Shown here: positions 1,800 through 21,818 of the stretch, piece by piece
Numbering within the stretch: position 1 is the stretch's first letter
Layout: each line of letters starts with the position of its first letter
Assembly (NCBI GenBank): GCA_024642575.1
Contig: JAHEBB010000001.1
Span: 1-48,039, forward strand
From: Trueperaceae bacterium
Lineage (GTDB): Bacteria; Deinococcota; Deinococci; Deinococcales; Trueperaceae
Length of the DNA stretch: 48,039 bases
Direction of reading: 5' to 3'
The notes under the pieces: generated by a model
Seen by the model: only the letters and a program-made list of their open reading frames with translations
What the model was told of the DNA's origin: nothing
Databases searched by the model: none
Position numbers and translations under genes: made by a program

Positions 1800-2699
1800 T
1801 TAAGTGAGTTGTGCCCAGTCTTTGCCAAGTGAATCAAACCGTCTATGCAATTCAGCCACAACGCTTTCTGGTATGGGTAAGGCTTGACTCACCATATCAA
1901 TATTGGCTTTGACGTATTTTGGGGTTTTGGTGCCGACAATGGCTACATCTACAGCGTCATGGGCAAAGGTAAAGCCTAAAGCCAATAAAATGCGGTCGGC
2001 TGGCTCATTTTCAATAGGGCCAAGGGCACGCAGTTTTTGGGCGCGTTCAAAATAACCATCAGCATAGCCACTTGGACTGCTAGCCGCACCCCAGGCACTA
2101 TTGGCAATCGGGCGTTTGATAATAAGCCCCATGTTTTTTTCTTTAATTTTGTCAAACAGGCTGTGCCTGGCTTTTTGCTCAACCAGATTAAAGCTGGTTT
2201 GTAGCGTATCAAATACGCCACTGTTTACCGCCCAAACCGCTGCGTCATTGTCACCACTGTAGCCAATGTAGCGTATTTTGCCTTCTTGCTGAGCTTTTTG
2301 TAAGGCTTTTATGGCTTCGCCTTTTTCCAGAACCTCGAGGCTACAGGAGTGTAACTGCACCAAATCAAGATAGTCTGTTTTCATTCGTTTTAAACTGCGG
2401 TCGATGCTGTCGCTTATGGTTTTTGCCGTCCAGGGTTCGCCTTCGTAGCCACCTGCAATGTGACCTGCTTTGGTAGCTAGATAATACTCATTGCGTCTAT
2501 GAGCAACCGTTTGACCGACAAATTCCTCACTTACGTTATAACAGGCTGCGGTATCTAAAAAGTTAATACCTAAATCTAAGGCATTGTTAAGAACTTCGGC
2601 AGCTCGAGCCGTATCTATACCCCCATAACCAATTTCGGAAAGCCCTGCGCCAAGACGAGACACTAACATATCTGTTTTTCCTAATTGTCTTTTTTCCAT
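1800..2699 (-). CDS. Aldo/keto reductase family oxidoreductase
   Basis: 299 aa. The N-terminus MEKRQLGKTDMLVSRLGAGLSEIG, plus LGINFLDTAACY, YLATK, LDLVQLH and IRYIGYS, are typical AKR blocks. Confidence 0.9.
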   Translation of the reverse strand: MEKRQLGKTDMLVSRLGAGLSEIGYGGIDTARAAEVLNNALDLGINFLDTAACYNVSEEFVGQTVAHRRNEYYLATKAGHIAGGYEGEPWTAKTISDSIDRSLKRMKTDYLDLVQLHSCSLEVLEKGEAIKALQKAQQEGKIRYIGYSGDNDAAVWAVNSGVFDTLQTSFNLVEQKARHSLFDKIKEKNMGLIIKRPIANSAWGAASSPSGYADGYFERAQKLRALGPIENEPADRILLALGFTFAHDAVDVAIVGTKTPKYVKANIDMVSQALPIPESVVAELHRRFDSLGKDWAQLT

Positions 2700-2974
2700 G
2701 TTTGAGCATACCTTAAGGTTTATAGAGCTCTTTGCAATGTAGCTGTCAATCCTTGTTACCGAAGTAAAAGCTTATGTTTCAAGCGAGGCATATGACAGTA
2801 GCTGAGACCAGTGTTAATGTATAAAATTTCGCATTTCCGATTTAAAACATCCTAAAAAACGATTCATTTCATTTTGTAAAAGAAGTGTAACAAAGCTGGT
2901 TTAAGCTCGGCTCATGATTATTTCATCTCTTGCGTTCTGAAAAATCAAAATTGAAGGTATTGAAAGGAATTTTT

Positions 2975-3475
2975 ATGAAACGATGGGTCACCTTGCTGGT
3001 TTTTGTTTGTTTCTATGCCAATGCCCAGCAATCTCCCCTCGAGCTTAAGCTCGAGCGCTTTGTCATTACACAAGTTGAGCAAGAGGGTGAAATGACAGAG
3101 TTAAGAGCAGCAGCTTTTGAATCACGTCCTGGGGACATGATTGAAGAAGTGCTCACAGCTACTAACCTTACGGATAACGCCTTAGCGGGTGTCACGCTTG
3201 AAATACCTGTGCCTATAGGTAGCAGCTATATCGCTGATAGTGCCAGCGTACTTGAGAGTGGTGGCGAGACGATTGTTGCCCAGTTCAGTTTTGACAACGG
3301 CTCGAGCTTTGGATTTGCGCCGCTTTATAAAACCATTACGGTGGTTGAAGACGGTAAGGAGGTAACAAAAGAGGTCATAGTTGACCCAAGTGAGTACACC
3401 CATGTTCGCTGGCTTTTGCCGAGTTTTAGTGCGAATGCAGAACTTACAGCCCAATTTCGCGCTGTAGTCCGTTAG
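2975..3475 (+). CDS. Small secreted protein with one DUF11-like domain (cluster gene A)
   Basis: Track ORF 2930..3475 begins at a TTG. The ATG at 2975 gives MKRWVTLLVFVCFYANAQ/Q, a clean signal peptide. The body contains PGDMIEEVLTATNLTDNALAGVTLEIPVPIGSSYIADSA, which resembles the DUF11 / conserved repeat domain core. Confidence 0.6.
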   Translation: MKRWVTLLVFVCFYANAQQSPLELKLERFVITQVEQEGEMTELRAAAFESRPGDMIEEVLTATNLTDNALAGVTLEIPVPIGSSYIADSASVLESGGETIVAQFSFDNGSSFGFAPLYKTITVVEDGKEVTKEVIVDPSEYTHVRWLLPSFSANAELTAQFRAVVR

Positions 3476-3514
3476 GTTTTCCCATACTCTTTTTATTCCG
3501 GAGGCATACTTTAC

Positions 3515-6262
3515 ATGTTGCATTTTAATAAAGGCCTGTTGGTTCTATTTGCGCTGCTGCTCAGTTTTGCATTAGCAGTAGGTACACCAGCGGGTGAAGA
3601 AATTACCAACCAGGCGACGGCTAAATATACCGATTCTGGTGGTCAACAACAAACCACAAACTCAAACCAAGTTATTACGGTTGTTAAACAAATTTTTGGT
3701 ATTAACATCGTAGCTAACGGTACAACCACTGTGCCTGGTCAAAGCCAGGACAGCACGCCAGGTAGCACCGTTTACTATCCTTATACCTTAACCAATACGG
3801 GTAACGGCATTGATAGCTTTACCCTTAGTTCAGTCATTGATACCGATGAAACCAGTGATAATGGCAGTATCAGTACCCCTGTTTTTTATCTTGACCGTGA
3901 TGGGGATGGGGTCGTTGATGCAGGTGAAAGTCAGATAACAAGCGTTGCTGATTTGGCAGCTGACGCTTCGGTAAAACTCATTATGGCCTACCGTTTACCT
4001 ACCGGTGCTGATTCTGCCGATGAGGTTATTGCAACCCTTAAAGGCGTGAGTGTCAATGATCCAGCGGGTAGCCCAGCTAGCGATGAAAACAACTACCATT
4101 TGACCACAGTGGTTCAAGATGCCACGATTGTTGTTTCAAAGGCAGCCAGCGTGTCTGAGGTAGAACCTGGCGATACCATTACTTATACGATTACAGCAAC
4201 CAATACGGGCTCAAAAAATGCTACCACTGTAACCCTTACTGACGCTGCACCAACAGGTACCACTATGGTCTCAGCTTCAGTGACGACGATTCCTAGTGGT
4301 AATGCTGCTGATACCAGTGTGCCAGTTGGCATTTTCGCAACAGTTATTCCTGGACAGACGGTACAAATGAGCTTTAGTGTTACCGTAGATGCAGGCACGC
4401 TCCCCGGTAATATTGATAATAGTGCCAGTGTCAGTTTTGTCGATAGTACCTCGAGCACCAAAACCGTTACCACCAATACAACCACGACCCAAGTCCTAGC
4501 CAGTTACGATACTGCTGTTGGCCCTAAAGATGATCCTTTGGATGGTTTAGCTGGCGATAGCGCTACACCCGTGTCTTATACCAGCGCAGAAGGCTACACC
4601 ATTACCGCTGCCGATGATGATGACGAGCAAACAGTTGCTGAAGTCGATGCAGGCGACAGCATAAGTTTTGTCAACTCGGTTAAGAACCTTGGTACAGCAA
4701 CCGATACCTTCAATTTTACGCTTGATAATACGGCTTTAAACCTTTCCTCAGGTTTTTCTGTAGTCATTACCCGTCTTGATGGTACACCTTTGCCTGATTC
4801 TGATGGTGACGGTAACCCAGATAGTGGTCCTTTGGCCAGAACAGCTGAGTTCGATTTTGTCGTCAAGGTTTTCTTGCCCGCTTCTCAAGATGACAGCGAT
4901 GGTGCCACCACGGTGCATAGTGTCGTGCTAACGGCAACCTCAAAACAAGACAATACGCAAACGGATACGACCACCAATACCATTACCGATGTTAAAGGCC
5001 CTGGGGTTGATTTTGGTAACAATACCGACACCGATGTCGATGGTGCCGATGATGACACCGTAGATAGCGCATTAGCCGTCACCAAAACCCAAAACCCTGG
5101 CACCAAAGCGGTATTCCCCATGGATGTTGTTAATACAGGTAGCCGTTTAGATAGCTATGATTTAAGTGGTAGCGTGAGCTTTAGCAGTACTACAGGCGCT
5201 ACTTTGGCAGTAGCTGTGTTTTATTACCGTGATAGTGCTGATACTAATGGTGATGGTACCTTAAGCAGTGCTGAAATTGCTGCGGCTACGCCCATAACCA
5301 ATACGGGGCTTATTGATCCAGATGTTGATGCTGAAAAAACGGTGTTTGCGGTGGTTTCTATTCCGGCAACGGCGACACCCCAAACCGTAACCCTAAGTCA
5401 ATCAGCTAGCTCACCCTTAACAGGGGTTAGTATGGCCTTTAACCTTGACAGGGTAACGGTAAATGCAGTTAGAGATTTTAGCTTTAACCCTGATCGTAAC
5501 GGTACGATTCCAAGCCCAGGTACGATTATTTATCAGCATAGCGTTACTAATAACGGTAACTTAAACATTAGCGATTTAGATATTACTGAGTTAGCAAGTG
5601 GTAACACAACAGGTTGGACCTATCTGTACTCTTATAACGGCACAACCTATTTCCCAGCTGCTAGCATGCCGGCACCTACGGCAATTACCCCAGGCTCGAG
5701 CCAGACCATCTTTATTAAGGTCAATGCGCCGGCTGGTGTACCACGTAATGCAAACAATATTGTCACTGTGACTGCCGCTCCTACCTGGGGTAGTGAAGGT
5801 AGTTCTTCAGGTAGTGACGGTGTTACCGATACCACAACAGTTATTAGCGGTGAATTGACCGTTGTAAAAGAGTGGAGTGCTGATGGTGGCACAAATTGGT
5901 TTAAAGGCGATGGTACCGATGGTTCTACCCCACCAGAGGTAGCCCCAAGCGGTGACATCTTGTACCGTATGCGCATAACTAATATTGGTACGGCCAATGT
6001 CACAGCTACCTATTTGCTTGACTCAGTACCTACCTTTACTGACTATGTAACAGGTTCAGCCAAGTTTCAGACAACGCCGGGTGTTAGTGATAGCATACGC
6101 TGCTCAAACAATGGTGGCTCAACGTTTATCGTGATTTGTCCTGTAGCCTCGGGCTCGAGCCCCTTTAATGTTGATACAGCTGTTGACGCAGTTCGTTTCT
6201 ACATCGATAGTCTTAACCCAGGTGCAACCGTAGAAGTTCGTTTTACTGTCCGTATTCAATAA
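3515..6262 (+). CDS. Secreted DUF11-repeat protein, Thr/Asp/Ser-rich, 915 aa (cluster gene B; candidate major structural subunit)
   Basis: GGAGG lies 10 nt upstream of the ATG. The signal peptide is LLVLFALLLSFALA, followed by TPAGEEITNQATAKY. A textbook DUF11 core is present (VEPGDTITYTITATNTGSKNATTVTLTDAAPTGTTMVS), with further copies such as VDAGDSISFVNSVKNLGTATDTFNF and SGDILYRMRITNIGTANVTATYLLDSVP. EF-hand-like loops are DRDGDGVVDAGE and DTNGDGTLSSAE. Confidence 0.8.
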   Translation: MLHFNKGLLVLFALLLSFALAVGTPAGEEITNQATAKYTDSGGQQQTTNSNQVITVVKQIFGINIVANGTTTVPGQSQDSTPGSTVYYPYTLTNTGNGIDSFTLSSVIDTDETSDNGSISTPVFYLDRDGDGVVDAGESQITSVADLAADASVKLIMAYRLPTGADSADEVIATLKGVSVNDPAGSPASDENNYHLTTVVQDATIVVSKAASVSEVEPGDTITYTITATNTGSKNATTVTLTDAAPTGTTMVSASVTTIPSGNAADTSVPVGIFATVIPGQTVQMSFSVTVDAGTLPGNIDNSASVSFVDSTSSTKTVTTNTTTTQVLASYDTAVGPKDDPLDGLAGDSATPVSYTSAEGYTITAADDDDEQTVAEVDAGDSISFVNSVKNLGTATDTFNFTLDNTALNLSSGFSVVITRLDGTPLPDSDGDGNPDSGPLARTAEFDFVVKVFLPASQDDSDGATTVHSVVLTATSKQDNTQTDTTTNTITDVKGPGVDFGNNTDTDVDGADDDTVDSALAVTKTQNPGTKAVFPMDVVNTGSRLDSYDLSGSVSFSSTTGATLAVAVFYYRDSADTNGDGTLSSAEIAAATPITNTGLIDPDVDAEKTVFAVVSIPATATPQTVTLSQSASSPLTGVSMAFNLDRVTVNAVRDFSFNPDRNGTIPSPGTIIYQHSVTNNGNLNISDLDITELASGNTTGWTYLYSYNGTTYFPAASMPAPTAITPGSSQTIFIKVNAPAGVPRNANNIVTVTAAPTWGSEGSSSGSDGVTDTTTVISGELTVVKEWSADGGTNWFKGDGTDGSTPPEVAPSGDILYRMRITNIGTANVTATYLLDSVPTFTDYVTGSAKFQTTPGVSDSIRCSNNGGSTFIVICPVASGSSPFNVDTAVDAVRFYIDSLNPGATVEVRFTVRIQ

Positions 6263-6268
6263 ATGACT

Positions 6269-6290
6269 GTGGCCCCTTAACGGGGGCCAC
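6269..6290 (+). terminator. GC-rich hairpin between cluster genes B and C; possible partial terminator or attenuator
   Basis: GTGGCCCC (6269-6276), loop TTAACG, GGGGCCAC (6283-6290). It begins 7 nt after the gene B stop codon. A pyrimidine/T-rich tract CTCTCCTATTTTA follows, then the gene C ATG at 6303. Confidence 0.5.
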
Positions 6291-6302
6291 CTCTCCTATT
6301 TT

Positions 6303-9116
6303 ATGAACCCCATGAAACTATTAAGCATCTTACTTATTTTTTTTCACTCAGCCTTGGCGCTTACACCTGCTGGCACCCTTATTCGCAATCAGGCCAGTGC
6401 TAGTTTTCAAGGGGAAACCTATTTATCAAATGAAGTCGGAACCAAGGTCAGAGCGCTTTGTGTGCCGCAACTTGGCCCCAATGGCAGTGTTGCTAAGCCT
6501 GGACAGCAAGTAACCAGTCGCCAGGGCGAATTTATTTATCTTTCTTATTTGATGCAAAATGTCGGCAATGCCAGCTTTGATTTTCGCCTGGGCTGGGCGC
6601 AAGATGTTAGCTCGAGCTGGACACCTGAAACGGTTCGTTTCTTTGCCGATACGAATGCCAACGGACAGCTTGATGAAGCTGAACCCGTGCTAAAAAGCCT
6701 GAATCTTGCCAGAAATAAATCCCAGCCGCTGATTATGGAGTTAAAACTGCCCCCAGATGCACTTGGTCAAAGTTATATTACGCCAACCTTGCAGTGCTCA
6801 ACAGGTGAACTTGACAGTGATAACTATGCCCTTATTCGAGTGACTCAGGGGCCAGCTTTACAACTTATTAAGTCTGTATCGCAGCAAACTGCAAAACCAG
6901 GAGAGAGCCTCGAGTTTGGTTTACAACTGGTTAATAAGGGCGGCTCGAGCGCTAGTGGCGAAGTTATTTTAACGGATCTTTTTGATACCCCTGAGCTGAT
7001 GGGTTTGCGTTTTGAAACGGGCTCAGCTAAGGCTAGTACAGGAAAGCTCGAGTATTTTGATGGCCTGAACTGGCAAGAGACCGAACCTGAAAGTGTCAAA
7101 GGTATTCGCCTGATTATTACAGATTTAACCGTTGAAGAAGTCGCCCAATTAGGCTATAAAATGCAGGTTCTGGCTACAGCACAAGCGGGCAAGCGCCGTA
7201 ATTCTGCGCTTGCGGAAGGACCAGGCGGGCCAGCCGAGGCTGCTGTAGAATTTGAGCTTATTGCCCATTATGAGCACCATCTGGGGCCAATCAATAACGC
7301 TCGAGCCCTGCCGGGGGGCGAAGAAAGTCTTAACGATAGCCAAAGTATCGATAAACTTATTTTTGGGCAAAGCCGCTGTTTTTTGCATACCCTTGAAAAT
7401 GCCAGTACCAGCCAAGACAGTTATCAACTTCATCTTTTAGGATTGCCCCCGCAAGTCAGCGCCAGTTTTAATACCATGCAAGATTTGCCTCTGGCTGAAA
7501 GCATTGCTTTGGACGCGGGCGAGACGCTAGATTTTAAGCTCTGTTTAACAACCTCAGGTATTGCGGGAGGGTTTAACCTAACGCTCGAGGCGATTTCAGA
7601 GACAACAGAAGAAGCTAATCTAACCTTTGACAAGGTAGAGAGCAGCGTCAGTGCCAGTCAAATTAGCCTCATAAAAACAGCCAGTAAGCCTTTTGCTGTT
7701 GATACTGGTGAAGACTTAAGTTATACGCTTAGTATCAAAAATGGGAATAGTTTCGAGCTTCATAATTTAGTGATAAGCGATCAGCTTCAAGAGTTTAAAA
7801 GTCAATCAGGTAAACCTGTGGAGATTCAAACTGCCTTTGTTTCTGCCTCAGATGGCGGCGTCTTTGACACTGAAAATCGGCTGATTCTCTGGCAACTTGA
7901 TAGCTTAAAGGCAGGGGAAAGCCTCGAGCTTCAGCTCACGGTTCGTATGCCTAAGTCGCCACCCAAGGGTGAGGTCTTTTCACTGGCTAATTATTTCACT
8001 TTAGAGGCTACTGAACTCATCAATCCTTTAAAGTCAAATACCGTTTTTAACGGCTTTCCCGTCATCAATATTGCGATTGAAAAAACAGTAGAGCCTGCTG
8101 TTATTAAGGTGGGCGAAACCCTGCATTACAGCATTACCGTAAGCAACCCGAACAATGTGCCTATGGCTATTGAACTGAGTGACCTACCTGATAGCCGCCT
8201 TGCCTACGTGGACGGCTCGAGCCTTCTTAAACTAGGTGCAACTCAGAAAGCGCTCGAGCCTTTAAAAGAAGGGAAAAACCTTATCTGGAACCTGCGTAAT
8301 GAGGAAGGCTTTTTGCTGCAAGCTGCGGGTGACCTACAAGGTCAAGACAAGCTAACTGTGAGCTATGAGATGGTGCCCAAACCAGGGGCAAGTGGAGAAT
8401 TAAAAAATATTGCCCAAGTCATTGGTCAATATACTTTTGCCTCGAGCGGAGATGAAACCTCAAATCCCGTGAGTGGTATTTCGGTAACCAGCCTCGAGGT
8501 TGAGGCCCTGGTAGAAGTTCAAGAGAGAACCTTAGCAGAGCGCAGCGCTTTGCTAGCCGGCCGCGTTTTCTTTGATTACAACGGCAATAATCTCTATGAT
8601 TATGGGCTAGATTTGGCGCTACCGGGTGCGCGTTTGTTACTCAGCAATGGCTGGCAGACGCTGACCGATCTTGAGGGAAGGTACAGCTTTAGGGACTTAG
8701 CGCCAGGTACTTGGTCGGTCATGCTTGACTCCAGCTCAGCACCGTTTGTACCTCTAGCTCATCCTGAAAGTTTAGATGATGGTTACCGTCACCGCATCGT
8801 TGTTGAAGGACTAAGTGTGTCTGATTTTGTGCTCGAGCTGCCGCTTGGCATGATTTCTGCCAGTCGTGAAACCAGCCTGATTTTTGGCCCTTTGCGTATT
8901 GATAAATCACTCATTGAGTTAGGCGAGTTTTCCAGAGTTGTTTTGCACCTAAGTAGCTCTGAAGCCTTACCTGAACTTAGCCTTAGTGACACTGTGCCAG
9001 GTCAAGAAGCAAAGCTCTTTTACTTTGAGCTTTTTCAAGGGGAAACTACCCTTACCTACGACATACCTAAAGATTTGCCCCTTACCGACCCGAATGTTCG
9101 CTGGAGATATCCATGA
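6303..9116 (+). CDS. Secreted DUF11-repeat protein with a C-terminal SdrD-B/CnaB-like domain, 937 aa (cluster gene C)
   Basis: The signal peptide LLSILLIFFHSALA is followed by LTPAGTLIRNQASASF, the same motif as in gene B. DUF11 cores include AKPGESLEFGLQLVNKGGSSASGEVILTDLF, VDTGEDLSYTLSIKNGNSFELHNLVISDQL and IKVGETLHYSITVSNPNNVPMAIELSDLPDSRLAYVDGS. The SdrD-B-like block is LAGRVFFDYNGNNLYDYGLDLALPGARLLLSNGWQTLTDLEGRYSFRDLAPGTWSV. Confidence 0.8.
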   Translation: MNPMKLLSILLIFFHSALALTPAGTLIRNQASASFQGETYLSNEVGTKVRALCVPQLGPNGSVAKPGQQVTSRQGEFIYLSYLMQNVGNASFDFRLGWAQDVSSSWTPETVRFFADTNANGQLDEAEPVLKSLNLARNKSQPLIMELKLPPDALGQSYITPTLQCSTGELDSDNYALIRVTQGPALQLIKSVSQQTAKPGESLEFGLQLVNKGGSSASGEVILTDLFDTPELMGLRFETGSAKASTGKLEYFDGLNWQETEPESVKGIRLIITDLTVEEVAQLGYKMQVLATAQAGKRRNSALAEGPGGPAEAAVEFELIAHYEHHLGPINNARALPGGEESLNDSQSIDKLIFGQSRCFLHTLENASTSQDSYQLHLLGLPPQVSASFNTMQDLPLAESIALDAGETLDFKLCLTTSGIAGGFNLTLEAISETTEEANLTFDKVESSVSASQISLIKTASKPFAVDTGEDLSYTLSIKNGNSFELHNLVISDQLQEFKSQSGKPVEIQTAFVSASDGGVFDTENRLILWQLDSLKAGESLELQLTVRMPKSPPKGEVFSLANYFTLEATELINPLKSNTVFNGFPVINIAIEKTVEPAVIKVGETLHYSITVSNPNNVPMAIELSDLPDSRLAYVDGSSLLKLGATQKALEPLKEGKNLIWNLRNEEGFLLQAAGDLQGQDKLTVSYEMVPKPGASGELKNIAQVIGQYTFASSGDETSNPVSGISVTSLEVEALVEVQERTLAERSALLAGRVFFDYNGNNLYDYGLDLALPGARLLLSNGWQTLTDLEGRYSFRDLAPGTWSVMLDSSSAPFVPLAHPESLDDGYRHRIVVEGLSVSDFVLELPLGMISASRETSLIFGPLRIDKSLIELGEFSRVVLHLSSSEALPELSLSDTVPGQEAKLFYFELFQGETTLTYDIPKDLPLTDPNVRWRYP

Positions 9117-12100: not shown

Positions 12101-14599
12101 TTGGGTAAGCTCGAGCTAGATCAAGAGCAGGGTATTCAGCGTCTTGAGTACTATGGTTTGCCCCTGATTCCTGGTGAAAATAAGCTCGAGCTGAGTGCCG
12201 CAGGACAATATGACACCGTGACGGTTTGGCGCGCGCTTAACCCAACTAAGCTGGCTTTTAAGGTTATAAGTGGCGAAGCCGATGGGGTAAGCCCTGTGCG
12301 TATTGAAGTGCAAGCCCTTGATGATTATGGTTTGAGCAATGGTTTTGGGGCGCTCAGTCTTGAAACGAACCTCGAGCCTTTAGATGAAGATGCCTTTCCC
12401 GATATGTCAGGCTATCAACTGCTGTTAAAAGATGGACGTGCTGTCCTAAATTTACGTCCGGTAAGTTATTCCCAGCCAGTCAAACTTAAGGCTCAGTTTA
12501 ATGATCTTAAGGCCGAATTTGACCATTTTCTGGGTGGTGCAGACGCTACGCTTTATCAGTATCAGGGAGTCATTACAGCCAGTTTTGATAGAGGTGAATT
12601 TGCCCTTGAAGCCGAAGCCAAAGCCTATCTGGAGACACCGTTTTTGCAAGGAAGTCTTCAGGGAGCATTAGACAGCAGTGGAAATCTAGCCAAAGCAGCC
12701 GAAGATCTGGAGCGCTTTCCCTTAACAGGTAGTGGACAAGATGCTCAAGCCGCCTTGCAATCAGATGATCTTATTGCTCTGCGCTATGACGATCCTCAGT
12801 TTAGTGTGGGTTACTACCGAAGCAGTCTTGATTTGCCAGGGCTTAATTTGGGCACAGCAACGGCCTTACAAGCTGAAGCTCGACTCGAGCCTTATGCTGC
12901 GGCTGAGCTAGGTCTTAAAGGCTTCGCTGCTCTTATGCCTGAAAGCGAAAGGGTTGAACTTATCAGCCCTGACGGTACGCGTTTTTATCTTGTTAAAGGA
13001 GCTAAAGACGGAATCAAGCGAGGCTCCGAAACGCTGACGGTGATTACGGGTGCACAGAGGCGTAAACTCATTCCTTTTAAGGATTACACCCTTAATTATG
13101 AAACAGGCGCGCTCATTTTAATTGCGCCTCTTTATGCGACCAATCCTCAGTTCCCAGGGCAAGAAGTGCTTCTTGAGGTTCATTATCAATTGCAAAATGA
13201 ACCACGTACTCAGCTTTCTTATGGCATGGGAGTTAGCTATAACCTCGAGCACTGGCAATTTGGTTTGGCGGCAGCCGAGCAAAAAGGGCTTAAACTGGCT
13301 GCTTATGCTAATTATCAAGATGAAGGTTTAAACTTTAAAACTCAGTACCGCTACGATGATCAAGGTCTTTCGCAGCTTAATCTAGATATTGCCTATACTT
13401 ATGAAACCTTAGTAACGAGTTTAAATCTGAGTTATAACCGACGCTTGCAAGGTCAGGCAAGGCTAGCGCTTGGTATTGCCGAAGGTCAAGCTATTGCGCT
13501 CGAGCATAGCACTAGCCTAAGCCGTAATCAGACCAATGCCCTTTATGAGCTTAATTTTGAACCGCTGAAGTTTGGTTTAGGGCTTGCCTATCTCTGGGAA
13601 GCAAATTCGGTCAATGCTGTTGCGCGAATGGGATACAGTGCAAATCAGTTTGGTATTGACTTGACGCATACTCAGGCGCTGAACGCTTCCGTCCCCTCGC
13701 TTAGTCAGCTGAATTTTTCCTATAAGGTTAGTGAAACCTTAACGGCTGACCTAAATTTTGACTACCTTTGGGGGGCAACCCTGTCAGGCAGTTTGGGTTT
13801 GGTTCAAACCTTAGGTAGCAGTACCTTAGCGCTGACCTATCAGCTTCCAGGTAGTGATGGCAAAGGTAATCGGGCGCGTTTTGGCGTTGAAACCCCTATT
13901 AGCCTCACAGAAGAATTGTCTCTTAACGTGGCCGGGACTTATGAACATGACTTTAGTCAATCATCAGATTTGGCACAGGGAAGTCTTGCTCTTAAATACC
14001 AGACAGAAGGTTTAACTGCCAGTAGTGCAGCCGAACTCAGCATAGATACACAGTCAGATTCTGAACTATTTAAACTTACTTATCGTGGCGGCATAAGTGG
14101 TCAGTTAGATCATCAGCAAAGTTTGTCATTTGACGTTAATTATCAACTTATTCCAGACCTTGAAGGCGATTTTACTCTGTCTTACGCCTTACGAGGTCGC
14201 GACCTAAGTTTACTTAGCTATCACCGTTTGACAACAGGTTCTAGCCCGATACTAGAAGGTGAATTTGCGCCGACCCTGCACCTGGCTAACAATTGGCAAT
14301 TAAGACCAGGTATTTCCTATAAGTTTCCGCTTGATAACCCCATTGGTACTACCTATCTAGCTTCTTTAGGTGGACACTATTACTTAAATAGTCAGTTTGG
14401 CTTAGGCGGAGCCGTTTATCACGAATGGCAGCCTGGAACTTCTTCAAATGCCACCGCGATAAGTTTTGAAGGAAGTATGCGGATGCTTGATGATCTCTGG
14501 ATGGTTGCTGGCTATACGATCAATGGGTTTGATGGTCTCTCAAGTCAGACAAAAAATGGGCTTTACTTGAGGCTCGAGCTGTTTGGAGGTAATCAGTGA
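9113..14599 (+). CDS. Giant envelope protein, 1828 aa: signal peptide, unknown N-domain, DUF11 repeats, Big_1-like Ig domain, C-terminal predicted beta-barrel of about 480 aa (cluster gene D)
   Basis: The ATG overlaps the gene C stop codon (ATGA at 9113-9116). The signal peptide is LVLFFVFLNLVFFNLGRAQ. DUF11 cores include AQLGDTVTFNLEVSNSGQADAKDVELQDSLPAGLS and EKVVVTLTVSNTGQARLNFQVTDTPPEWLE. The Big_1-like segment is GEADGVSPVRIEVQALDDYGLSNGFG. From about residue 1346 there are many amphipathic strands rich in aromatic residues (QLSYGMGVSYNL, LKLAAYANYQD, LNFKTQYRYDD, LNLDIAYTYE, LKFGLGLAYLWE and others), ending in GLYLRLELFGGNQ. Confidence 0.8.
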   Translation: MRRCLVLFFVFLNLVFFNLGRAQVEIKGIVPGDGLGWEIKDVKMLLSVGTDSFVKLEIYSPGFDPDDYRAALKGLEELGDENYDPASRLEGEFRLSQGEQVVARAKYAVEQHQWVSLFEGELKAGAYTLSSRFFGNAKNAYIYRLTSPNQSAVSLSYADGLKLFDVRGRDWQKGFEVSLPAEALPARYALYDGDGETELEAKVVLPNGSEKHLEVSGKLAWETWEFNEPGNYQIFFRIPKTATQYSNTVAFQEVFPAPVTVEVVDTALEPLNIPYTLTGYSLRDVDLGEKGKYQLLKVEADGGEALSETHYQFGYEGGHIRYILGLPIPLPKPLIRYAEPAKLTIKSVLRLPAATRPYALGFSLNGETKRLNETGEMTLEVPAGTYSLTAGLKGARVVLPEPFILKAAEAKTVVIEIYPQVALSLEAEPRTLYLGESSKVRAVASTDFADLLPSDLFLDLPEGWRSSSAPRLTSPISATRSALLELEVWPDATGVYPVADRLEPWGLSKSLNVTVLEPARLSLSKTLDKASAQLGDTVTFNLEVSNSGQADAKDVELQDSLPAGLSGQNLDTVFDLPAGESRSFQVPATVVAGTEKTVTNTAKLIFNEEVQESSASLEVLLPEPKLERSLNYTEVLPSEKVVVTLTVSNTGQARLNFQVTDTPPEWLELLGSNSFSGELEPGESQTYSYEAQVRFGPEVSAQFEASLVSNGGSLTNTAALKRKLIPLEKVASAAVLLEGESVSFIVRVSNPLTRPITLDLRESPDAGLNLEADSLISLAFTPLERKELSFTAKPSQTGDLLNEVSVFLGTTPVSFPAQASVLVKPALLPERLSTIRLPFTVEASQGDLLLVRHEEMPGSQYQEGSSRLNGEPLADPKRLVLPDGETEHTYLFWELPFAKTGLLSYTLRHQAELAEIAEPSLTLQVGARELYLQGKASFADLTNAVQIGLTEREGLIREPLAGTIYRLLDQAKVVLELKTMERPSLLLNGEVVSDDYLGKLELDQEQGIQRLEYYGLPLIPGENKLELSAAGQYDTVTVWRALNPTKLAFKVISGEADGVSPVRIEVQALDDYGLSNGFGALSLETNLEPLDEDAFPDMSGYQLLLKDGRAVLNLRPVSYSQPVKLKAQFNDLKAEFDHFLGGADATLYQYQGVITASFDRGEFALEAEAKAYLETPFLQGSLQGALDSSGNLAKAAEDLERFPLTGSGQDAQAALQSDDLIALRYDDPQFSVGYYRSSLDLPGLNLGTATALQAEARLEPYAAAELGLKGFAALMPESERVELISPDGTRFYLVKGAKDGIKRGSETLTVITGAQRRKLIPFKDYTLNYETGALILIAPLYATNPQFPGQEVLLEVHYQLQNEPRTQLSYGMGVSYNLEHWQFGLAAAEQKGLKLAAYANYQDEGLNFKTQYRYDDQGLSQLNLDIAYTYETLVTSLNLSYNRRLQGQARLALGIAEGQAIALEHSTSLSRNQTNALYELNFEPLKFGLGLAYLWEANSVNAVARMGYSANQFGIDLTHTQALNASVPSLSQLNFSYKVSETLTADLNFDYLWGATLSGSLGLVQTLGSSTLALTYQLPGSDGKGNRARFGVETPISLTEELSLNVAGTYEHDFSQSSDLAQGSLALKYQTEGLTASSAAELSIDTQSDSELFKLTYRGGISGQLDHQQSLSFDVNYQLIPDLEGDFTLSYALRGRDLSLLSYHRLTTGSSPILEGEFAPTLHLANNWQLRPGISYKFPLDNPIGTTYLASLGGHYYLNSQFGLGGAVYHEWQPGTSSNATAISFEGSMRMLDDLWMVAGYTINGFDGLSSQTKNGLYLRLELFGGNQ

Positions 14600-14687
14600 T
14601 GCTGCAGAAGGCTTGGGAATGGAACTATAAATCACTGCTCACTTTGGCTCGAGTCAAATCGCTTTTTGATAAAAGGAATAAAACACA

Positions 14688-17600
14688 ATGAAATGGCTAA
14701 GATGGTTAAATACTAGGATAGTTTTCAGACATTGCTTAGTCCTAAACTTAGAACTAAAGCAGTGCCTTTTCTGTATTAGTTTTATCCTTTTAGTGCTGTT
14801 TGGTCATTCTGCTTCTGCTCAAACGTTAAGCTATACCGGGCAACCTTCCTTTTTCCGTGCTGATCGGGGTTCCACTAACGTGGCTTCATCTGGGTATATT
14901 TCCTACCAATTTACCAGCAGCAGTGCATGCTCGGATGTTTGGATAAGGCTTAATAGCATTAGTGGTTTAGAGGGGAAACTTACACTTGCTACTAATGAAG
15001 ATGGTCTATTTCGTGTTGGCCCTATGACAACTTCAGAGACCAAGGCAGCCTATTTCTACCTTAAAACTACAGGCATATCTACAGTTGCCGCAACTCTATC
15101 AACCAGCGCATTTTGTGGTAGACCCGGTCAAGTGGGTACAACAACTTTGTTAACAACCAGTAACACGATATCATCGATTGCAAGTACTCAAGCTGCTTCA
15201 CCGCAGACCCTTATTTCTACTTTGGTTTGCAGCTCACCTCAAGTAGGGAGTGTCTGTAGTTTAAAAGTGATTAGCGATCAAGGAAATATGGGAGGCAGTG
15301 GGGTTATGGCTTGGGCTCCGGCTTCTGCTGCAGATTGGCCAGCTGACACTTTTGAACTCTTTTCAACAACCATTAATGTCAATATGACAGATATAAATGG
15401 CGATAAGATTTGTGAGACAACTGCAGATTCGTTTACCTTGCTTAATGACTTATACGATGATAATACTCAAGGTACAAAAGATGGGCTTTCAGCTAAGCTT
15501 TATTGTGCAGAATACTTATTTCGTTTGAAAGATAGTTTTGCAAATCCTTCAGCTATAAAAACCAGCTTACTGATGTACGCTAGTAGTGGTGGACCAATTA
15601 AATTTACGGGCAATTTTGATGACCCTTTATTTACTTTAAGCTTACCTCCCTCAAGTAATAATGTGATTTTAAGCAAATCGGTCAGTCCTACTTCAGCTCT
15701 ACTAGGTCCATTGACGGTAACTTATACAGTTAACATTCAAAACAGCTCAGGTTATACCCTTTACCTTGATAGTGTTAAGGATATTTTGCCCTCATCACCG
15801 GCTGTAGTAGTCTATGTATCGGGGTCAAGTAGCTTTGCGGGAAGCAGTATTCCTGACCCTAGCCAATCAGGTCAAACGCTTACCTGGAATCGACTTTTTA
15901 CTGTACCTAATGGTGGGACTACGCTCCGATATCAAGCCAGTATCCTTAATACCTTTGGAACCTATACAAACAGTGTTACGGCGTTAATTGGCAGTACTCA
16001 AATTGATACTACGGTAAATACAGGGGACAACCAACCAGCAACCGCTAGTTTTAAACTTGGTTCAGGTACGATCACCTTACGTAAAACGGCTCTAGGTGGT
16101 AACGGTAGCTTTGATTTCAGTAGTTCAGATAGTAATTTAGATAGTGTCAGCTTAGCTGTGACAAATGGAAATACCGTTAGTAGCTCAGGCTTTACTAAGA
16201 CTGAAGGATCTTATACTGTTTCAGAAGATAGCTTAAGTGGCTGGAATTTAGAAAGTATTAGTTGTACTGGAGACACAGATAATGGCTCGAGCGTTAATCT
16301 TGGTTTGCGTAGTGTAACGATTGATCTTGATATAAACGAAAATATTGTGTGTACTTTTACTAATGTTAAAAATGGTTCGATACAAATTATAAAAAATACC
16401 ATACCTGATGATGCCCAAGACTTTGATTTTGTAACTACAGGCACAGGTTTATCTAGCTTTAGTTTAGATGATGATGCAGATTCGAGTAAGAGTAATAGTA
16501 TAACGTTCTCGAATTTGGCTCCTGGAAATTACAATATTAGCGAAAGTATCAATACAATCTGGGCGCTTACAGGTTTAAGTTGTACAGGGGCCAGCAGTAG
16601 TACCATCGCCTACTTAGGTGCTTCAGCAGGTACAAATGTTTTTGAGATGGGTGATAATAGCGTCGCGATTAATTTAGGGGCGAGTGAAAATATTATATGC
16701 ACCTTTGTTAGTCAGCCTGCAGATTTTGGAGATGCGCCAGCCAGTTATGGCAATGCCAGACATATTATTCCGACAACCCCTGGTATTTATCTGGGTGGAG
16801 TTGCTCCAGATAGTGAAGCCCGAAGCCAAAATACTGTTAATGGTGGTATAGATGGTAGTGGGGATGATACTTCTGGTACAGATGATGAAGACGGCATTGT
16901 CATTAGTAAGCTACTTACCAGCTCGAGCACAAACTTTAGCATTCCCGCCTCAGACATCACCCTGACCAATACCAGTGGCAGTTCAGCAACACTGCATGCC
17001 TGGATTGACTTTAACAAAAACGGTTCTTTTGAGGCTTCAGAGTACGCTTCTGCGACAGTGAGTAGTGGTATCACAAATGGTCATCCAGCCACAGGACTTA
17101 GCTGGACAGGGCTATCAGGCTTAAGCAATGGTACGACCTATGCGCGATTCAGACTGACCACCACAAGTTTGAGTGATAGTGGCGGGACCACTTTTGATGA
17201 TAGGGCTGTGGGTGAAGCTGCGAATGGTGAAGTTGAAGATTATAGTCTGAGTATTGTTTCAGGGATTTCTGGGACGGTTTTTAAAGATGAAAATAGTAAT
17301 GACACTTTAGAGGGTAGCGATGTTGGCGTAGCTGCTATTAGTGTCAAGTTTTACCGAGATAGTAACAGTAATAGTCTTTTTGACCCTGCAACAGATACGC
17401 TCATTGATACCGATGTAACTGTGAGTGGCGGGCTCTTTTCACTTGGAGCTAGTACCACTGGTACTTATTTTGTGGTGCTTCAGCACTTAGACCCAAATAT
17501 GCCCTCAGGCTATTTACCTGACCGAACTGTAAGACTTGTTAGCTTTTCAGGCTCGAGCGTTGCAGGTGAAAATTTCCCTTTAGACCCAGTTACGACCAGC

Positions 17601-19982
17601 TTGGCAAGTTGTACCGTTAGTGCTTATTTGTTTCAACAAAGCCCTACAGATGTTTATGGGCTTAACTTAGCAACAGGCTCGAGCACTTTACTCGCAAGCG
17701 ATATTGGTAATATTCAGGTCAACGCTATAGGTTTTAACCCGCTGGATAATTTCATCTATGGTTCAAATAACACCAATAGCAACGGCACAATCGCAAAAGT
17801 AGATGGCAGTTTTAATGTTATAAGCCTTGGCCCCATAGTAGGTTTACCTCTAACAAGTTTTAATACAGGTGACGTAAGCCCTGCTGGCAAACTCTACCTT
17901 TATGGAAGTTATGGAAGTAATCTGTTGCAAGTTGTCGATGTAAATTCAAGTTCGGCCACCTATTTGCAATTGACTACACTTACCCTCTCGCAAGGCTTAT
18001 CGCTGACAGATTTAGCTTTTAACCCCATAGATGAGATGATTTATACGGTAGCTAACAATACTAAGAACCTGTACCGTATTAATCCAACAACAGGCGTGGT
18101 AACTGATCTGGGTAATACGGGTATTGCGGGTACATCTACCTTTGGAGCCCAGTTTTATGATGCCGATGGTTTTATGTACCTCTCTAGAAATCAAGATGGC
18201 AATATCTACCGAGTAGATACAAGAAACCCAGCCAGTATTTCTGCTACCGCAACCTTTTTTGCCAGTGGACCATTGTCTGGAACCAATGATGGTGCACGCT
18301 GTATGTACGCGCCTGTTTTAAATGACTATGGTGACGCACCTTCAAGTTATAAAACGCTATTAAATGATAGTGGTGCCAAGCATGATATTTCTTTAGGTAC
18401 AAGCTACTATCTAGGTTCAAATGCTCCTGATGCTGAAATTGATGGACAGCCTTCAAATGGTGCCAATGCCGATGGTAGTGATGAAGACGGCGTAACCTGG
18501 AAGGGCAGTGACTTAAATGGTCAGACTGTGAGCTATGTGGATAGCTCGAGCCTCATCGTAACCACCACGGGTAATGCTTATTTGCAAGCCTGGATTGACT
18601 GGGACGGAAACGGTACGTTTGATAATGATGAGCAAATTGCCAAAAACTTTCGCCCGGTTGCAGGTCAAATCAAGATTCCCTTTAGCATGCCTTTTGACGC
18701 CGTTGCAGGTGTCAGCTACGCTCGTTTTCGCTACAGTACGGATCTTAATTTGGGGGCTAGTGGAGCAGCTAGCGATGGTGAAGTTGAAGATTACCGCCTT
18801 ACCCTGGTCAATGCGGGCATTTCAGGTACGGTTTTTTACGATGATGGACGAGGTGGGGGTACAGCCAATAATAGCCTGCAAGATGGTACCGAGTTGGGGG
18901 CTAGCGGTATACGCATGACTGCCAGTGATGGAACGAATAGTGTTTCAACGCTCACCGATGGTGCAGGGAATTACCAGCTTGTTATTCCACCAGGCTTTGG
19001 TGCAAATGTCACCCTTTCTCACACGCATTATCCGGCTACAGGAACCAGTGTGTCAGGTCTCTTTGTTTCGCAATGCTTGGCAACAGGTATCAGAGACGTG
19101 CATGCCGCTAGCCGCATCCTTAGCGATACAAACTGCTCTGGAAGTATTGACGGGCTCGAGCCTGGCTATGTGAGTGGCACCAGCTATACCAACTATGACT
19201 TTGGCATTATTGAAGCGGTTAGCTTAAAACCAGATCAAAATGGTCAGGCAACAAGCCCTGACGCTGTTTCCTATACCCATCTGTTTAGTCCTGGAACGCT
19301 TGGCGCGGTTAGCTTGAGCGTATCAGGCGGACGTTACAGCTATCAGGTCTTTTTAGATAGTGATTGTAATGGCATCATTGACCCAGCTGAACAAAGCGAT
19401 GTGCTTAGTACGGGCTTTACGGTGGGTTCAGGCTGGGCCAGAGATGATGATGGTCGTCTGGCTGCTTGTGCGCTCGAGCTGCGGGTAATTGTGCCTGCGG
19501 GAGAAGTGAATGGTCGATTAGATATTGCTGGGCTCGAGGCTTCACTCTTTTGGGCAACCAGCGAAATGGTCACGGATGAAAGTGATGTCACTGACATGAC
19601 GACTATAAACAGCGGTGCCACCTTAAAAGTCAGCAAGCGCGTTCGAAATATTACTGAAGGAGGCAGCTTTGCAGTTCGTACCGAAGGCTCTCCAGGAGAT
19701 GTACTGGAGTATTGTATTAGTTACGAAAATATTGGTATTAACCCGCTTAATAATGTGCAAATGAGTGATCCACTGCCCTACTTCACCAGTTTTGAGAGTG
19801 ATGGTTATGATACAGGTGCAGGAGATCAGAGTATTCAGTGGACAGCGGCAAGCACAACTCTTTTAAGTCAAGCCCAAGATGTTGATGTTGGTTCTTTTGA
19901 TAACAGTTTTGTTTGGCTCTCGGTAGGAACGGTTGCACCAGGAGCTACGGGAAGCCTATGTTACAAAGCAAGTATTGATTAG
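14688..19982 (+). CDS. Giant secreted multi-domain adhesin-like protein, 1764 aa (cluster gene E)
   Basis: AAGGA lies upstream of the ATG and the signal peptide is CISFILLVLFGHSASAQ. There is a DUF11-like block (LGPLTVTYTVNIQNSSGYTLYLDSVKDILP). Two prealbumin-fold (SpaA-like) modules end in NIVCTFTNV and NIICTFVSQ. Two GEVED modules run from GDAPASYG to WIDFNKNGSFEASE to GEVEDYSL, and from GDAPSSYK to WIDWDGNGTFDNDE to GEVEDYRL. Each is followed by an SdrD-B-like ISGTVF block. A propeller-like segment is also present (AIGFNPLDNFIYGSNN, DLAFNPIDEMIYTV, DADGFMYLSRNQDGNIYRVD). The C-terminal DUF11 core is GSPGDVLEYCISYENIGINPLNNVQMSDPLPYFTSF. Confidence 0.8.
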   Translation: MKWLRWLNTRIVFRHCLVLNLELKQCLFCISFILLVLFGHSASAQTLSYTGQPSFFRADRGSTNVASSGYISYQFTSSSACSDVWIRLNSISGLEGKLTLATNEDGLFRVGPMTTSETKAAYFYLKTTGISTVAATLSTSAFCGRPGQVGTTTLLTTSNTISSIASTQAASPQTLISTLVCSSPQVGSVCSLKVISDQGNMGGSGVMAWAPASAADWPADTFELFSTTINVNMTDINGDKICETTADSFTLLNDLYDDNTQGTKDGLSAKLYCAEYLFRLKDSFANPSAIKTSLLMYASSGGPIKFTGNFDDPLFTLSLPPSSNNVILSKSVSPTSALLGPLTVTYTVNIQNSSGYTLYLDSVKDILPSSPAVVVYVSGSSSFAGSSIPDPSQSGQTLTWNRLFTVPNGGTTLRYQASILNTFGTYTNSVTALIGSTQIDTTVNTGDNQPATASFKLGSGTITLRKTALGGNGSFDFSSSDSNLDSVSLAVTNGNTVSSSGFTKTEGSYTVSEDSLSGWNLESISCTGDTDNGSSVNLGLRSVTIDLDINENIVCTFTNVKNGSIQIIKNTIPDDAQDFDFVTTGTGLSSFSLDDDADSSKSNSITFSNLAPGNYNISESINTIWALTGLSCTGASSSTIAYLGASAGTNVFEMGDNSVAINLGASENIICTFVSQPADFGDAPASYGNARHIIPTTPGIYLGGVAPDSEARSQNTVNGGIDGSGDDTSGTDDEDGIVISKLLTSSSTNFSIPASDITLTNTSGSSATLHAWIDFNKNGSFEASEYASATVSSGITNGHPATGLSWTGLSGLSNGTTYARFRLTTTSLSDSGGTTFDDRAVGEAANGEVEDYSLSIVSGISGTVFKDENSNDTLEGSDVGVAAISVKFYRDSNSNSLFDPATDTLIDTDVTVSGGLFSLGASTTGTYFVVLQHLDPNMPSGYLPDRTVRLVSFSGSSVAGENFPLDPVTTSLASCTVSAYLFQQSPTDVYGLNLATGSSTLLASDIGNIQVNAIGFNPLDNFIYGSNNTNSNGTIAKVDGSFNVISLGPIVGLPLTSFNTGDVSPAGKLYLYGSYGSNLLQVVDVNSSSATYLQLTTLTLSQGLSLTDLAFNPIDEMIYTVANNTKNLYRINPTTGVVTDLGNTGIAGTSTFGAQFYDADGFMYLSRNQDGNIYRVDTRNPASISATATFFASGPLSGTNDGARCMYAPVLNDYGDAPSSYKTLLNDSGAKHDISLGTSYYLGSNAPDAEIDGQPSNGANADGSDEDGVTWKGSDLNGQTVSYVDSSSLIVTTTGNAYLQAWIDWDGNGTFDNDEQIAKNFRPVAGQIKIPFSMPFDAVAGVSYARFRYSTDLNLGASGAASDGEVEDYRLTLVNAGISGTVFYDDGRGGGTANNSLQDGTELGASGIRMTASDGTNSVSTLTDGAGNYQLVIPPGFGANVTLSHTHYPATGTSVSGLFVSQCLATGIRDVHAASRILSDTNCSGSIDGLEPGYVSGTSYTNYDFGIIEAVSLKPDQNGQATSPDAVSYTHLFSPGTLGAVSLSVSGGRYSYQVFLDSDCNGIIDPAEQSDVLSTGFTVGSGWARDDDGRLAACALELRVIVPAGEVNGRLDIAGLEASLFWATSEMVTDESDVTDMTTINSGATLKVSKRVRNITEGGSFAVRTEGSPGDVLEYCISYENIGINPLNNVQMSDPLPYFTSFESDGYDTGAGDQSIQWTAASTTLLSQAQDVDVGSFDNSFVWLSVGTVAPGATGSLCYKASID

Positions 19983-19988
19983 GATTAG

Positions 19989-21812: not shown

Positions 21813-21818
21813 GCAGAC

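Follow-up and report, generated by a model that had tools for sequence, protein, structure and literature searches.

A five-gene cluster of putatively secreted CLIPPER-domain proteins in Trueperaceae: a candidate self-contained outer-membrane fibre system of diderm bacteria

Introduction

Pilus classes are defined by their route of assembly, and no more than a handful have been described. Those whose subunits are polymerised covalently are regarded as a Gram-positive speciality that depends on sortases. The current study concerns a cluster of five genes (A–E) from a Trueperaceae bacterium (phylum Deinococcota), carried on a 48,039 nt stretch of DNA (nt 1–48039 of contig JAHEBB010000001.1, assembly GCA_024642575.1; hereafter the window). 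All five encode proteins predicted to be secreted and related to the DUF11 repeat family, and an initial annotation, made from the sequence of the window, had proposed them as an uncharacterised surface-fibre or envelope-layer system.

The closest described systems are of several kinds. In chaperone-usher pili (FimA-FimH-FimI-FimC-FimD), subunits of ~150 amino acids (aa) are assembled without ATP at the usher, a 24-strand outer-membrane barrel with a plug between its strands and with N- and C-terminal domains. An N-terminal donor strand makes up for the missing part of the Ig-like fold in the subunit ahead, and the chaperone also supplies a donor strand. The tip adhesin has an acceptor and no donor, and the subunit added last is a special one that links fibre and barrel. 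A hairpin in the mRNA after the gene for the major subunit is the classic arrangement for over-producing that subunit.

In BsaA of Clostridium perfringens, which belongs to the TasA family (bioRxiv 10.1101/2024.11.04.621531), and in the archaeal (Sulfolobus) threads (PMC9715654), donor-strand exchange is combined with an intermolecular Asn-Lys lock. An N-terminal strand enters the next subunit, and the bond forms spontaneously with the help of an acidic catalyst in the acceptor. Neither fibre needs an outer-membrane barrel, since one is built by a monoderm bacterium and the other by an archaeon. Sortase pili (SpaA, RrgB, BcpA) are covalent fibres with tip, shaft and base, and contain CnaA/CnaB-type domains with intramolecular isopeptides.

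DUF11 has since been renamed CLIPPER, and its domains form Lys-Asn bonds catalysed by an Asp (PMC12617251). The CLIPPER adhesins described so far, such as B9T28_05395 of Acinetobacter silvestris (PDB 9IFR; PMC12617251), are monomeric, i.e. single polypeptides with complete domains, intramolecular bonds only and distal GEVED modules, and are anchored by OmpA-like, type IX secretion system (T9SS) or other sorting domains (PMC12617251). The DUF11 literature examined describes monomeric adhesins, archaeal aggregation proteins and single-polypeptide "grappling hooks", and the 2025 survey of CLIPPER domains deals with intramolecular bonds only and makes no mention of split domains, barrels or ushers (PMC12617251). 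An isopeptide domain that is split into a reactive peptide and a truncated domain, the latter holding the partner residue and the catalytic acid, is familiar from the engineered CnaB-type pair SpyTag/SpyCatcher, made by splitting CnaB2, whose two parts reassemble and bond spontaneously.

A CLIPPER domain divided between protein termini

The two ends of protein B match the two parts of one CLIPPER domain (Table 1). When the complete domain, a profile of 127 columns, was used in profile-profile alignment (hhalign), the C-terminal domain of B (the acceptor) corresponded to positions 5–93 and ended at the stop codon (99.1%), and the N-terminus (the donor hairpin) to positions 94–127, with Asn32 aligned on Asn302 of the internal domain (93.3%, E = 2.8e-7). 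An independent hmmsearch with a hidden Markov model (HMM) of 141 positions placed the acceptor at 14–107 and the donor at 108–140, i.e. with the break between 107 and 108. In an alignment of 83 B homologues from several phyla, the key residues of both halves are kept in nearly every sequence. The donor hairpin has, in the first strand of the mature protein, I30, N32 and D40 in 83/83 and Y38 in 82/83; the acceptor has K785 in 83/83 and D836 in 82/83, and its tail has no conserved Asn. The internal triad of B is similarly retained (K209, 80/83; D243 and N302, both 83/83).

Protein E likewise ends in an acceptor domain (aa ~1645–1764), which bears Lys1650 and Asp1694, corresponds to positions 4–93 of 127, and runs up to the stop codon (97.9%); a donor hairpin is absent from E. 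Both residues are present in 8/8 E orthologues, and the B and E acceptors of every lineage examined all retain the Lys and the Asp. A donor-hairpin HMM, applied to a six-frame translation of the window and to all orthologous clusters, matched the N-termini of B and C only, and gave no match to A, D or E. The halves are therefore distributed as donor plus acceptor in B, donor only in C, acceptor only in E and an acceptor-like domain only in A.

Joining the halves in silico improves the match to the family. Appending the donor hairpin to the B acceptor lifted its Pfam DUF11 score from 18.5 to 25.1 bits (18.8 bits with a shuffled hairpin), and the E acceptor, given the hairpin of B, went from 23.1 to 32.4 bits; coverage of the Pfam model then reaches position 110 of 114. 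Since the halves on E, A and C lack a counterpart in their own chain, they can be completed only by another protein. As judged from these profile comparisons, the CLIPPER domain is split exactly and in complementary fashion across protein termini.

Complete domains are also present. Full Lys-Asp-Asn triads, predicted to form intramolecular isopeptides, were found in B (aa 200–325), C (aa 183–302 and 590–706) and D (aa 519–611). The initial annotation had ascribed a DUF11 core to all five proteins, which is borne out for B, C and D (Pfam DUF11, PF01345: 44.6, 75.3 and 68.5 bits, cut-off 24.6; NCBIfam matches likewise above threshold, in B to TIGR01451) and for E, which remains under the Pfam cut-off (22.3 bits) and passes that of TIGR01451 (29.1 against 24). 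For A the likeness is weak, being seen in profile comparison only.

B is presumed to be the major repeating subunit. It has about six Ig-like/CLIPPER-like domains, is rich in Thr, Asp and Ser, and is almost free of Cys, as had been remarked (15% Thr, 9% Asp, 2 Cys). An AlphaFold2 (AF2) model of B had a predicted local distance difference test score (pLDDT) of 87.8 and a predicted template modelling score (pTM) of 0.54, and Foldseek returned generic multi-Ig proteins at template modelling (TM) scores of <0.3. For B as for the D core, the Foldseek results exclude close relatives and offer no clue to function. PDB chains searched by sequence with B, C, D and an alignment profile of A yielded nothing useful. 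B also carries DxDGDG-type loops resembling calcium sites, namely YLDRDGDGVVD (aa ~125–135), DSDGDGNPD (aa ~425–435) and DTNGDGTLS (aa ~575–585).

Organisation of the cluster and the hairpin after gene B

The five open reading frames (ORFs) lie on the forward strand exactly where the initial annotation had them and cover 17,008 bp, or 35% of the window (Table 1). Its account of their spacing also proved correct, with 39 bp between A and B, 40 bp between B and C, an ATGA overlap of C and D (nt 9113–9116), and 88 bp between D and E. Sec-type signal peptides with AxA-type cleavage sites, judged by eye, are found at all five N-termini.

A GC-rich stem-loop occupies the B-C gap just 3' of the B stop codon (nt 6269–6290, forward strand; -19.4 kcal/mol, z = -4.0), where a hairpin had been noted previously. 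A stable hairpin is found at the same position after B in 6/6 orthologous loci that were folded, with differing sequences; these represent five independent clusters, as two of the loci (L002 and L004) are one contig. The stem-loop is a candidate partial terminator or mRNA stabiliser giving an excess of A and B. Its conservation suggests that B is over-produced relative to minor components encoded downstream, and that A and B belong to the highly expressed part of the transcript. Apart from this hairpin, a consensus scan for promoters and terminators gave nothing above shuffled sequence, and no convincing sigma-70 promoter was matched upstream of A.

Genes C and D

C is presumed to be a base or terminator subunit, as it has a donor hairpin and no clear acceptor domain. 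It consists of CLIPPER domains, two of them with the full triad, and an SdrD_B-like domain. Its C-terminal domain was considered as an acceptor and found unconvincing (71% over 46 columns). The protein ends in a motif that was compared across the window and loci L002, L003, L005, L007–L009 and L013. In Trueperaceae and Meiothermus it is always TDPxxRWRYP, in Deinococcus it reads TDPTVTWRNP, and it is possibly a docking element for D.

The stop-start overlap between C and D is conserved in the orthologous clusters. In Polaromonas and Opitutaceae, proteins of ~2,000 aa match both the C HMM (E = 4e-55) and the HMM of the D core (E = 3e-83), and so represent C::D fusions, in which the C-terminal motif of C is not recognisable. 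Such fusion strongly supports the view that C and D function together as a single unit. A long third gene is found in four lineages beyond Deinococcota, and the fusion was confirmed in these two.

The initial annotation had predicted a C-terminal beta-barrel in D, and this is supported by an AF2 model of the conserved core built from a 44-sequence alignment (pLDDT 89.4, pTM 0.75). The model has approximately three beta-sandwich domains (aa ~831–1141) followed by the barrel (aa ~1147–1828), an uninterrupted run of ~39 strands in the DSSP assignment, so that its size is taken as roughly 36–40 strands. A small conserved beta-domain, with the pattern PDGTRxY...GSE...DYTL...G.L.L..PL, is inserted after about the seventh predicted barrel strand (aa ~1280–1346, nt 12950–13150), which in the model would be a position similar to that of the usher plug. 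The N-terminal extension of D is absent from Deinococcus D and from the C::D fusions. No Pfam family was matched by the core, distant homologues included, and Foldseek against the PDB found generic large barrels only (LptD, MtrB, TonB-dependent receptors, Deinococcus SlpA; TM <0.2), with no usher, autotransporter or Omp85 protein in the top 50 matches. A word-indexed search with the barrel returned just two proteins, and it was exhaustive HMMER searching of 1.84 billion proteins that revealed the family, with 262 representatives. The mature N-terminus of D was considered as a further donor and rejected, as it has neither the Asn motif nor a match to the donor HMM.

Some D relatives differ in structure. 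In a Trueperaceae metagenome-assembled genome (MAG; L002/L004, nt 10001–14639) a frameshift splits the D orthologue into ORFs of 1380 and 180 aa, and the protein lacks an insertion of ~290 aa (aa ~325–615 of the window D) that holds the best DUF11 match of the window protein. In Deinococcus lacus (L012, nt 7067–15246) the C and D orthologues are in several ORFs, possibly through decay of the genes or errors in sequencing. A distant relative in the D family (L016, nt 1–18088; GCA_013298595.1) has 2695 aa and seven CLIPPER domains and is preceded, with overlapping stop and start, by a CLIPPER giant of >4179 aa; a neighbouring gene has a PatA_N domain, and may point to a cyanobacterial host.

Genes E and A

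E is presumed to be a tip adhesin. Its modules include DUF11, two SpaA_4, two GEVED and a DUF6923 domain; the N-terminal and middle parts are variable, and only the last ~390 aa are conserved among orthologues. The middle part consists of variable binding modules, as expected of a tip adhesin. The signal region of E is unusually long (45 aa, nt 14688–14822), has no alternative in-frame start, and is reminiscent of the extended signal peptides known from secreted adhesins of very large size.

A has no match in Pfam or NCBIfam. It is closest to the B acceptor (hhalign against the C-terminal domain of B, 98.3%, E = 2e-14) and aligns to positions 15–92 of the complete CLIPPER domain, ending at its own C-terminus (95.2%) with the same break as in B and E. 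The position of the catalytic Asp is Ile77 in A, and among 56 A-family proteins it is Gly in 36 and Asp in 4. In 11/11 A orthologues the place of the Asp is taken by Gly, Ile, Leu, Val or Asn, and no Lys is conserved. Lacking both the reactive Lys and the catalytic Asp, A looks able to bind a hairpin and unable to bond to it. It is therefore a candidate periplasmic chaperone or cap for donor hairpins, in the form of a secreted stand-alone acceptor. A is the first gene of the cluster in six examined lineages outside Deinococcota, and within Deinococcota it comes first in every locus where upstream sequence was available and matched.

Conservation and distribution

Scattering of the orthologues had been named beforehand as an observation that would speak against a common system. 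When looked at by tblastn and ORF mapping, the orthologues proved to be syntenic. The order A-B-C-D-E is found in Trueperaceae, in four Meiothermus/Thermaceae genomes and in Deinococcus, where a complete replicon carries genes of 168, 664, 925, 1044 and 804 aa in A-to-E order. Flanking genes differ between lineages, which indicates that the five genes travel as a module. In the source databases the proteins are named "hypothetical", "DUF11 domain-containing" or "beta strand repeat-containing".

The wider range of the cluster came from homologues of B, of which 317 were found at E <= 1e-10, mostly full-length and of ~900 aa, in several phyla. The closest (86% identity) is from a Trueperaceae MAG. 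A scan for D patterns, with one genome per species, recovered ten loci, all in Deinococcota, and under-states the distribution because the patterns are specific to that phylum. In Polaromonas, Opitutaceae TAV5 and a Desulfuromonadales genome, an A-like gene (166–180 aa) and B are followed by a ~2,000-aa gene and an E-like giant. In Moraxella the A-like gene encodes 158 aa and the gene after B 1,593 aa, with no obvious E-like gene; and Sericytochromatia have a fragmented variant of the cluster. One Moraxella locus (L021, nt 1–17627) contains two tandem sets, the first with two B paralogues and a 1596-aa protein, the second with the A-like protein, B and the 1593-aa protein. These sets are hints of heteropolymeric or alternative fibres. 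Additional genes for envelope anchoring, encoding an OmpA-domain protein (L019, nt 18888–20045) and an SLH-domain protein (L020, nt 16286–17020), lie inside the Desulfuromonadales and Sericytochromatia clusters, respectively.

Surroundings of the cluster in the window

The window has a G+C content of ~45%, and Rfam and tRNA scans of it were empty. The presumed promoter region upstream of A adjoins an aldo-keto reductase gene (nt 1800–2699, reverse strand). The remaining neighbours, an ABC ATPase, a convergent phytochrome/two-component operon, and sugar and peptide uptake genes, are, like the reductase, unrelated to the cluster. The bacteriophytochrome operon (nt 19989–25026, reverse strand) converges with E. 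Regulation of the cluster by these adjoining genes was considered and rejected, as they are convergent and are not kept beside orthologous clusters; for the latter reason the operon is probably unrelated. Between it and a peptidase S58 gene is an ORF of 162 aa (nt 25349–25837, forward strand) with no Pfam match.

Table 1. Features of the gene cluster and the adjoining operon (positions in the window).
Feature	Position (nt)	Strand	Remarks
AT-rich intergenic region	2700–2974	+	presumed promoter region, inferred; divergent from aldo-keto reductase gene
Gene A	2975–3475	+	166 aa; longer TTG start at 2930 possible
Gene B	3515–6262	+	915 aa
B donor hairpin	3578–3685	+	aa 22–57, TPAGxxIxN32QAxAxYxD...; matches last two strands of CLIPPER domain and has its isopeptide Asn
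B internal complete CLIPPER domain	4112–4492	+	triad K209-D243-N302; Pfam DUF11 at aa 205–321
B acceptor domain	5852–6259	+	aa 780–915; CLIPPER domain ending before the Asn hairpin, keeps Lys785 and Asp836
Gene C	6303–9116	+	937 aa
C donor hairpin	6360–6476	+	aa 20–58, TPAGTLIRN29QASASF...; found by donor-hairpin HMM
C C-terminal motif	9081–9113	+	LTDPNVRWRYP; directly before the overlapping D start codon
Gene D	9113–14599	+	1828 aa
D N-terminal extension	9113–11560	+	aa 1–816, CLIPPER domains at 519–679; lineage-specific
D conserved core	11561–14599	+	aa 817–1828; presumed outer-membrane anchor or translocation pore
Gene E	14688–19982	+	1764 aa
REC-PAS-PAS-HisKA_3 kinase	19989–21812	-	bacteriophytochrome operon
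Single-domain response regulator	21819–22259	-	bacteriophytochrome operon
PAS2-GAF-PHY histidine kinase	22256–24472	-	bacteriophytochrome operon
Heme oxygenase	24469–25026	-	bacteriophytochrome operon

Comparison with described fibre systems

The cluster maps to no characterised assembly system by Pfam/NCBIfam, Foldseek or literature comparison, in agreement with the initial annotation, and a description of such a cluster was not found in the literature, subscription-only papers being outside the scope of the search. Chaperone, usher, sortase, ATPase, autotransporter and T9SS-tail families had zero matches among the five proteins (Pfam, NCBIfam). The earlier statement that no chaperone, usher, sortase or ATPase is encoded thus holds for homology, and the part that needs qualifying concerns function, as A and D are still plausible functional analogues.

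Several features resemble those of chaperone-usher pili. Assembly is proposed to be ATP-free and to take place at an outer-membrane barrel, and the split of the domain suggests that an N-terminal donor would complete the fold of the subunit ahead. The presumed tip has an acceptor and no donor, a special last subunit would tie the fibre to the barrel, and an mRNA hairpin follows the gene of the presumed major subunit. There are also differences. The part of the donor is played by a two-strand hairpin from a CnaA-like CLIPPER domain rather than a single strand, and the joint is predicted to be covalent; subunits are of ~900 aa with six domains, and the barrel has ~36–40 strands. The candidate chaperone, A, would supply an acceptor instead of a donor strand, and the base is fused to the barrel in several phyla (see above). 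PapD-like chaperones (PF00345/PF02753) had no match in the five proteins or their neighbours, A being a single CLIPPER-like domain, and the usher family (PF00577) had none on D or its distant homologues.

The chemistry proposed for the joint is that of BsaA and the threads, with an N-terminal strand entering the next subunit and a spontaneous Asn-Lys bond aided by an acidic residue of the acceptor. The corresponding residue pattern (donor Asn, acceptor Lys plus acidic residue) is conserved in B, and the same pattern is seen in E and C. Those fibres differ in having a TasA/camelysin-like or thread fold, not CLIPPER, SipW-type processing or other export, and no division of labour between tip, base and dead acceptor. 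The cluster has no Peptidase_M73/TasA match, its subunits being CLIPPER/Ig-like, and no signal peptidase gene.

With sortase pili the proteins share domains of the CnaA/CnaB type, predicted intramolecular isopeptides and a proposed covalent fibre of tip, shaft and base, and TIGR04226, the RrgB isopeptide domain, matches C and D with scores close to or slightly under its cut-off. They differ in that the hosts are diderm, there is no LPXTG, C-terminal membrane anchor, sortase gene or YPKN pilin motif, and the link is predicted to form autocatalytically inside the reconstituted domain. The C-termini, where an LPXTG signal with a hydrophobic tail would be expected, read ...RFTVRIQ, ...RWRYP and ...CYKASID.

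Monomeric CLIPPER adhesins have the domain family, the Lys-Asp-Asn chemistry and the GEVED modules in common with the cluster, in which, unlike in them, the terminal domain is split. Compared with SpyTag/SpyCatcher, the split proposed here would be natural, of CnaA type, and used for polymerisation. Type V secretion barrels, which have 12 or 16 strands and belong to the autotransporter, Omp85/TpsB or intimin families, gave no match (PF03797, PF01103, POTRA, PF11924), and the D barrel is about three times larger. For the type V pili of Bacteroidota, neither a lipobox Cys at +1 nor a P_gingi_FimA or Mfa match was found, and T9SS/GhpA-like giants are set apart by the absence of a Por_Secre_tail/CHU_C domain from the five proteins, which are separate genes with split terminal domains. 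The system is best placed within donor-strand-exchange fibres as a covalent-lock analogue of chaperone-usher pili, with a substantial chance of deserving a new pilus class.

Proposed model and alternatives

On balance the data favour, with some reserve, a self-contained outer-membrane fibre (pilus-like adhesin) system present in several diderm phyla. All five proteins would be exported by Sec. A, co-expressed with B upstream of the mRNA hairpin, would act as a chaperone or polymerisation inhibitor by holding donor hairpins reversibly in the periplasm. The donor hairpin of an incoming subunit would complete the acceptor of the subunit ahead, and a spontaneous Lys-Asn isopeptide bond (from one B to the next between Lys785 and Asn32, with Asp836 catalytic) would lock the joint, with no need for sortase or ATP. 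The fibre would run from E at the tip through repeated B to C at the base. E, with adhesin modules and an acceptor and without a donor, fits the tip; C, with a donor, without an acceptor, and translationally coupled or fused to D, would be the last subunit and tie the fibre to D, whose barrel would serve as the outer-membrane anchor and probably as the export pore. The layout put forward in the initial annotation (a small subunit, an abundant repeat subunit, a second repeat subunit, a barrel-bearing giant and a tip adhesin) agrees with this donor/acceptor pattern. We infer intermolecular complementation, the covalent bond, the polarity, export through D, the surface location and the role of A; polarity is modelled on chaperone-usher pili and the lock on BsaA and the archaeal threads.

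The broader proposition is that the cluster represents an unrecognised and widespread Gram-negative pilus class, with subunits joined covalently through a CLIPPER domain split between polypeptides, an outer-membrane platform of its own (~36–40 strands, not related to ushers and frequently fused to the base) and a dead-acceptor chaperone. Its assembly pathway would differ from those of chaperone-usher, type IV, curli, type V and sortase pili. This is put forward tentatively, at slightly worse than an even chance.

Several points weigh against the fibre model. The evidence is computational throughout. The N-terminal hairpin of B is confidently structured in the AF2 monomer (pLDDT 79–92), and might, on that model, dock on B's own acceptor, so that B would cyclise instead of polymerising; the number of B copies per fibre could also be one. 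A Thermaceae MAG locus (L006) has no E, D being found directly before genes that in related Meiothermus are downstream of E. In the Opitutaceae TAV5 fusion (L018, nt 12801–12950) Ala replaces the reactive Asn of the donor (PAPGTLIRAQAYLNY), so that covalent bonding at the base may be missing in some lineages. No relation of D to ushers could be detected, and the size of its barrel is approximate because the strand count was read from the DSSP string and is odd (39). The chaperone role proposed for A rests only on its missing residues and operon position.

The same donor/acceptor pattern would also serve a single-copy covalent adhesin, in which one E, one B and one C are joined end to end as a ~3,600-aa stalk on D and B is not repeated. 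Such an arrangement is unlikely. B has a donor and an acceptor of its partners' type, so that joining of B to B should be no less feasible than that of B to E or of C to B, the hairpin conserved after B points to an excess of B over C, D and E, and Moraxella has tandem B paralogues.

Self-complementation, with the hairpin of B completing its own C-terminal domain to give a closed, cross-linked monomer, would make the proteins separate adhesins or envelope proteins and D a pore or anchor. The structured hairpin in the AF2 monomer is consistent with this, as is the pTM of B, which is rather high for a fully extended chain of beads, and alpha-2-macroglobulin and complement proteins, which form rings, are among the closest folds to B, at low TM. 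However, single-chain AF2 tends to fill an incomplete fold with any available strand, and the acceptors of E and A have no donor in the same chain, nor the donor of C an acceptor. This explanation is judged a little weaker than the single-copy adhesin.

An envelope layer (S-layer or sheath) made mainly of B, which the initial annotation had raised as an alternative, is now disfavoured and seems very improbable. B is abundant-looking, acidic, Thr/Ser-rich and nearly free of Cys, DUF11 proteins are known from sheaths and S-layers of archaea (PMC12617251), and an SLH-domain gene is part of the Sericytochromatia cluster. With a single donor and a single acceptor each, however, B subunits would form linear chains and not sheets; a tip-like adhesin and a base subunit coupled to a barrel are in keeping with a fibre; and A–E contain no S-layer family or SLH domain (Pfam, NCBIfam). 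Equally improbable is a very divergent chaperone-usher system, or an autotransporter or two-partner secretion system with D as translocator of C, as the logic of tip, major and base subunit with an outer-membrane barrel does resemble chaperone-usher operons and the C::D fusions do have the autotransporter order of N-terminal passenger and C-terminal barrel, but ushers, PapD-like chaperones, autotransporter barrels, POTRA and TpsB are without Pfam/NCBIfam matches, the Foldseek top 50 contains no usher, autotransporter or Omp85 protein and no TM of 0.2 or above, and the D barrel has ~36–40 strands against 24, 12 or 16.

Significance

Whether Gram-negative bacteria use isopeptides beyond the stabilisation of single domains has been posed as an open question (PMC12617251). 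If the fibre model is correct, bacteria of at least five phyla build covalent fibres without an enzyme or a periplasmic energy source, by dividing an autocatalytic domain between subunits. The model singles out the residues concerned, namely Lys785, Asp836 and Asn32 of B, Asn29 of C, and Lys1650 and Asp1694 of E. D would be among the largest single-chain outer-membrane barrels predicted so far, and the clusters of thermophiles (Meiothermus, Thermus) would provide natural, thermostable and orthogonal "tag/catcher" pairs for protein engineering.

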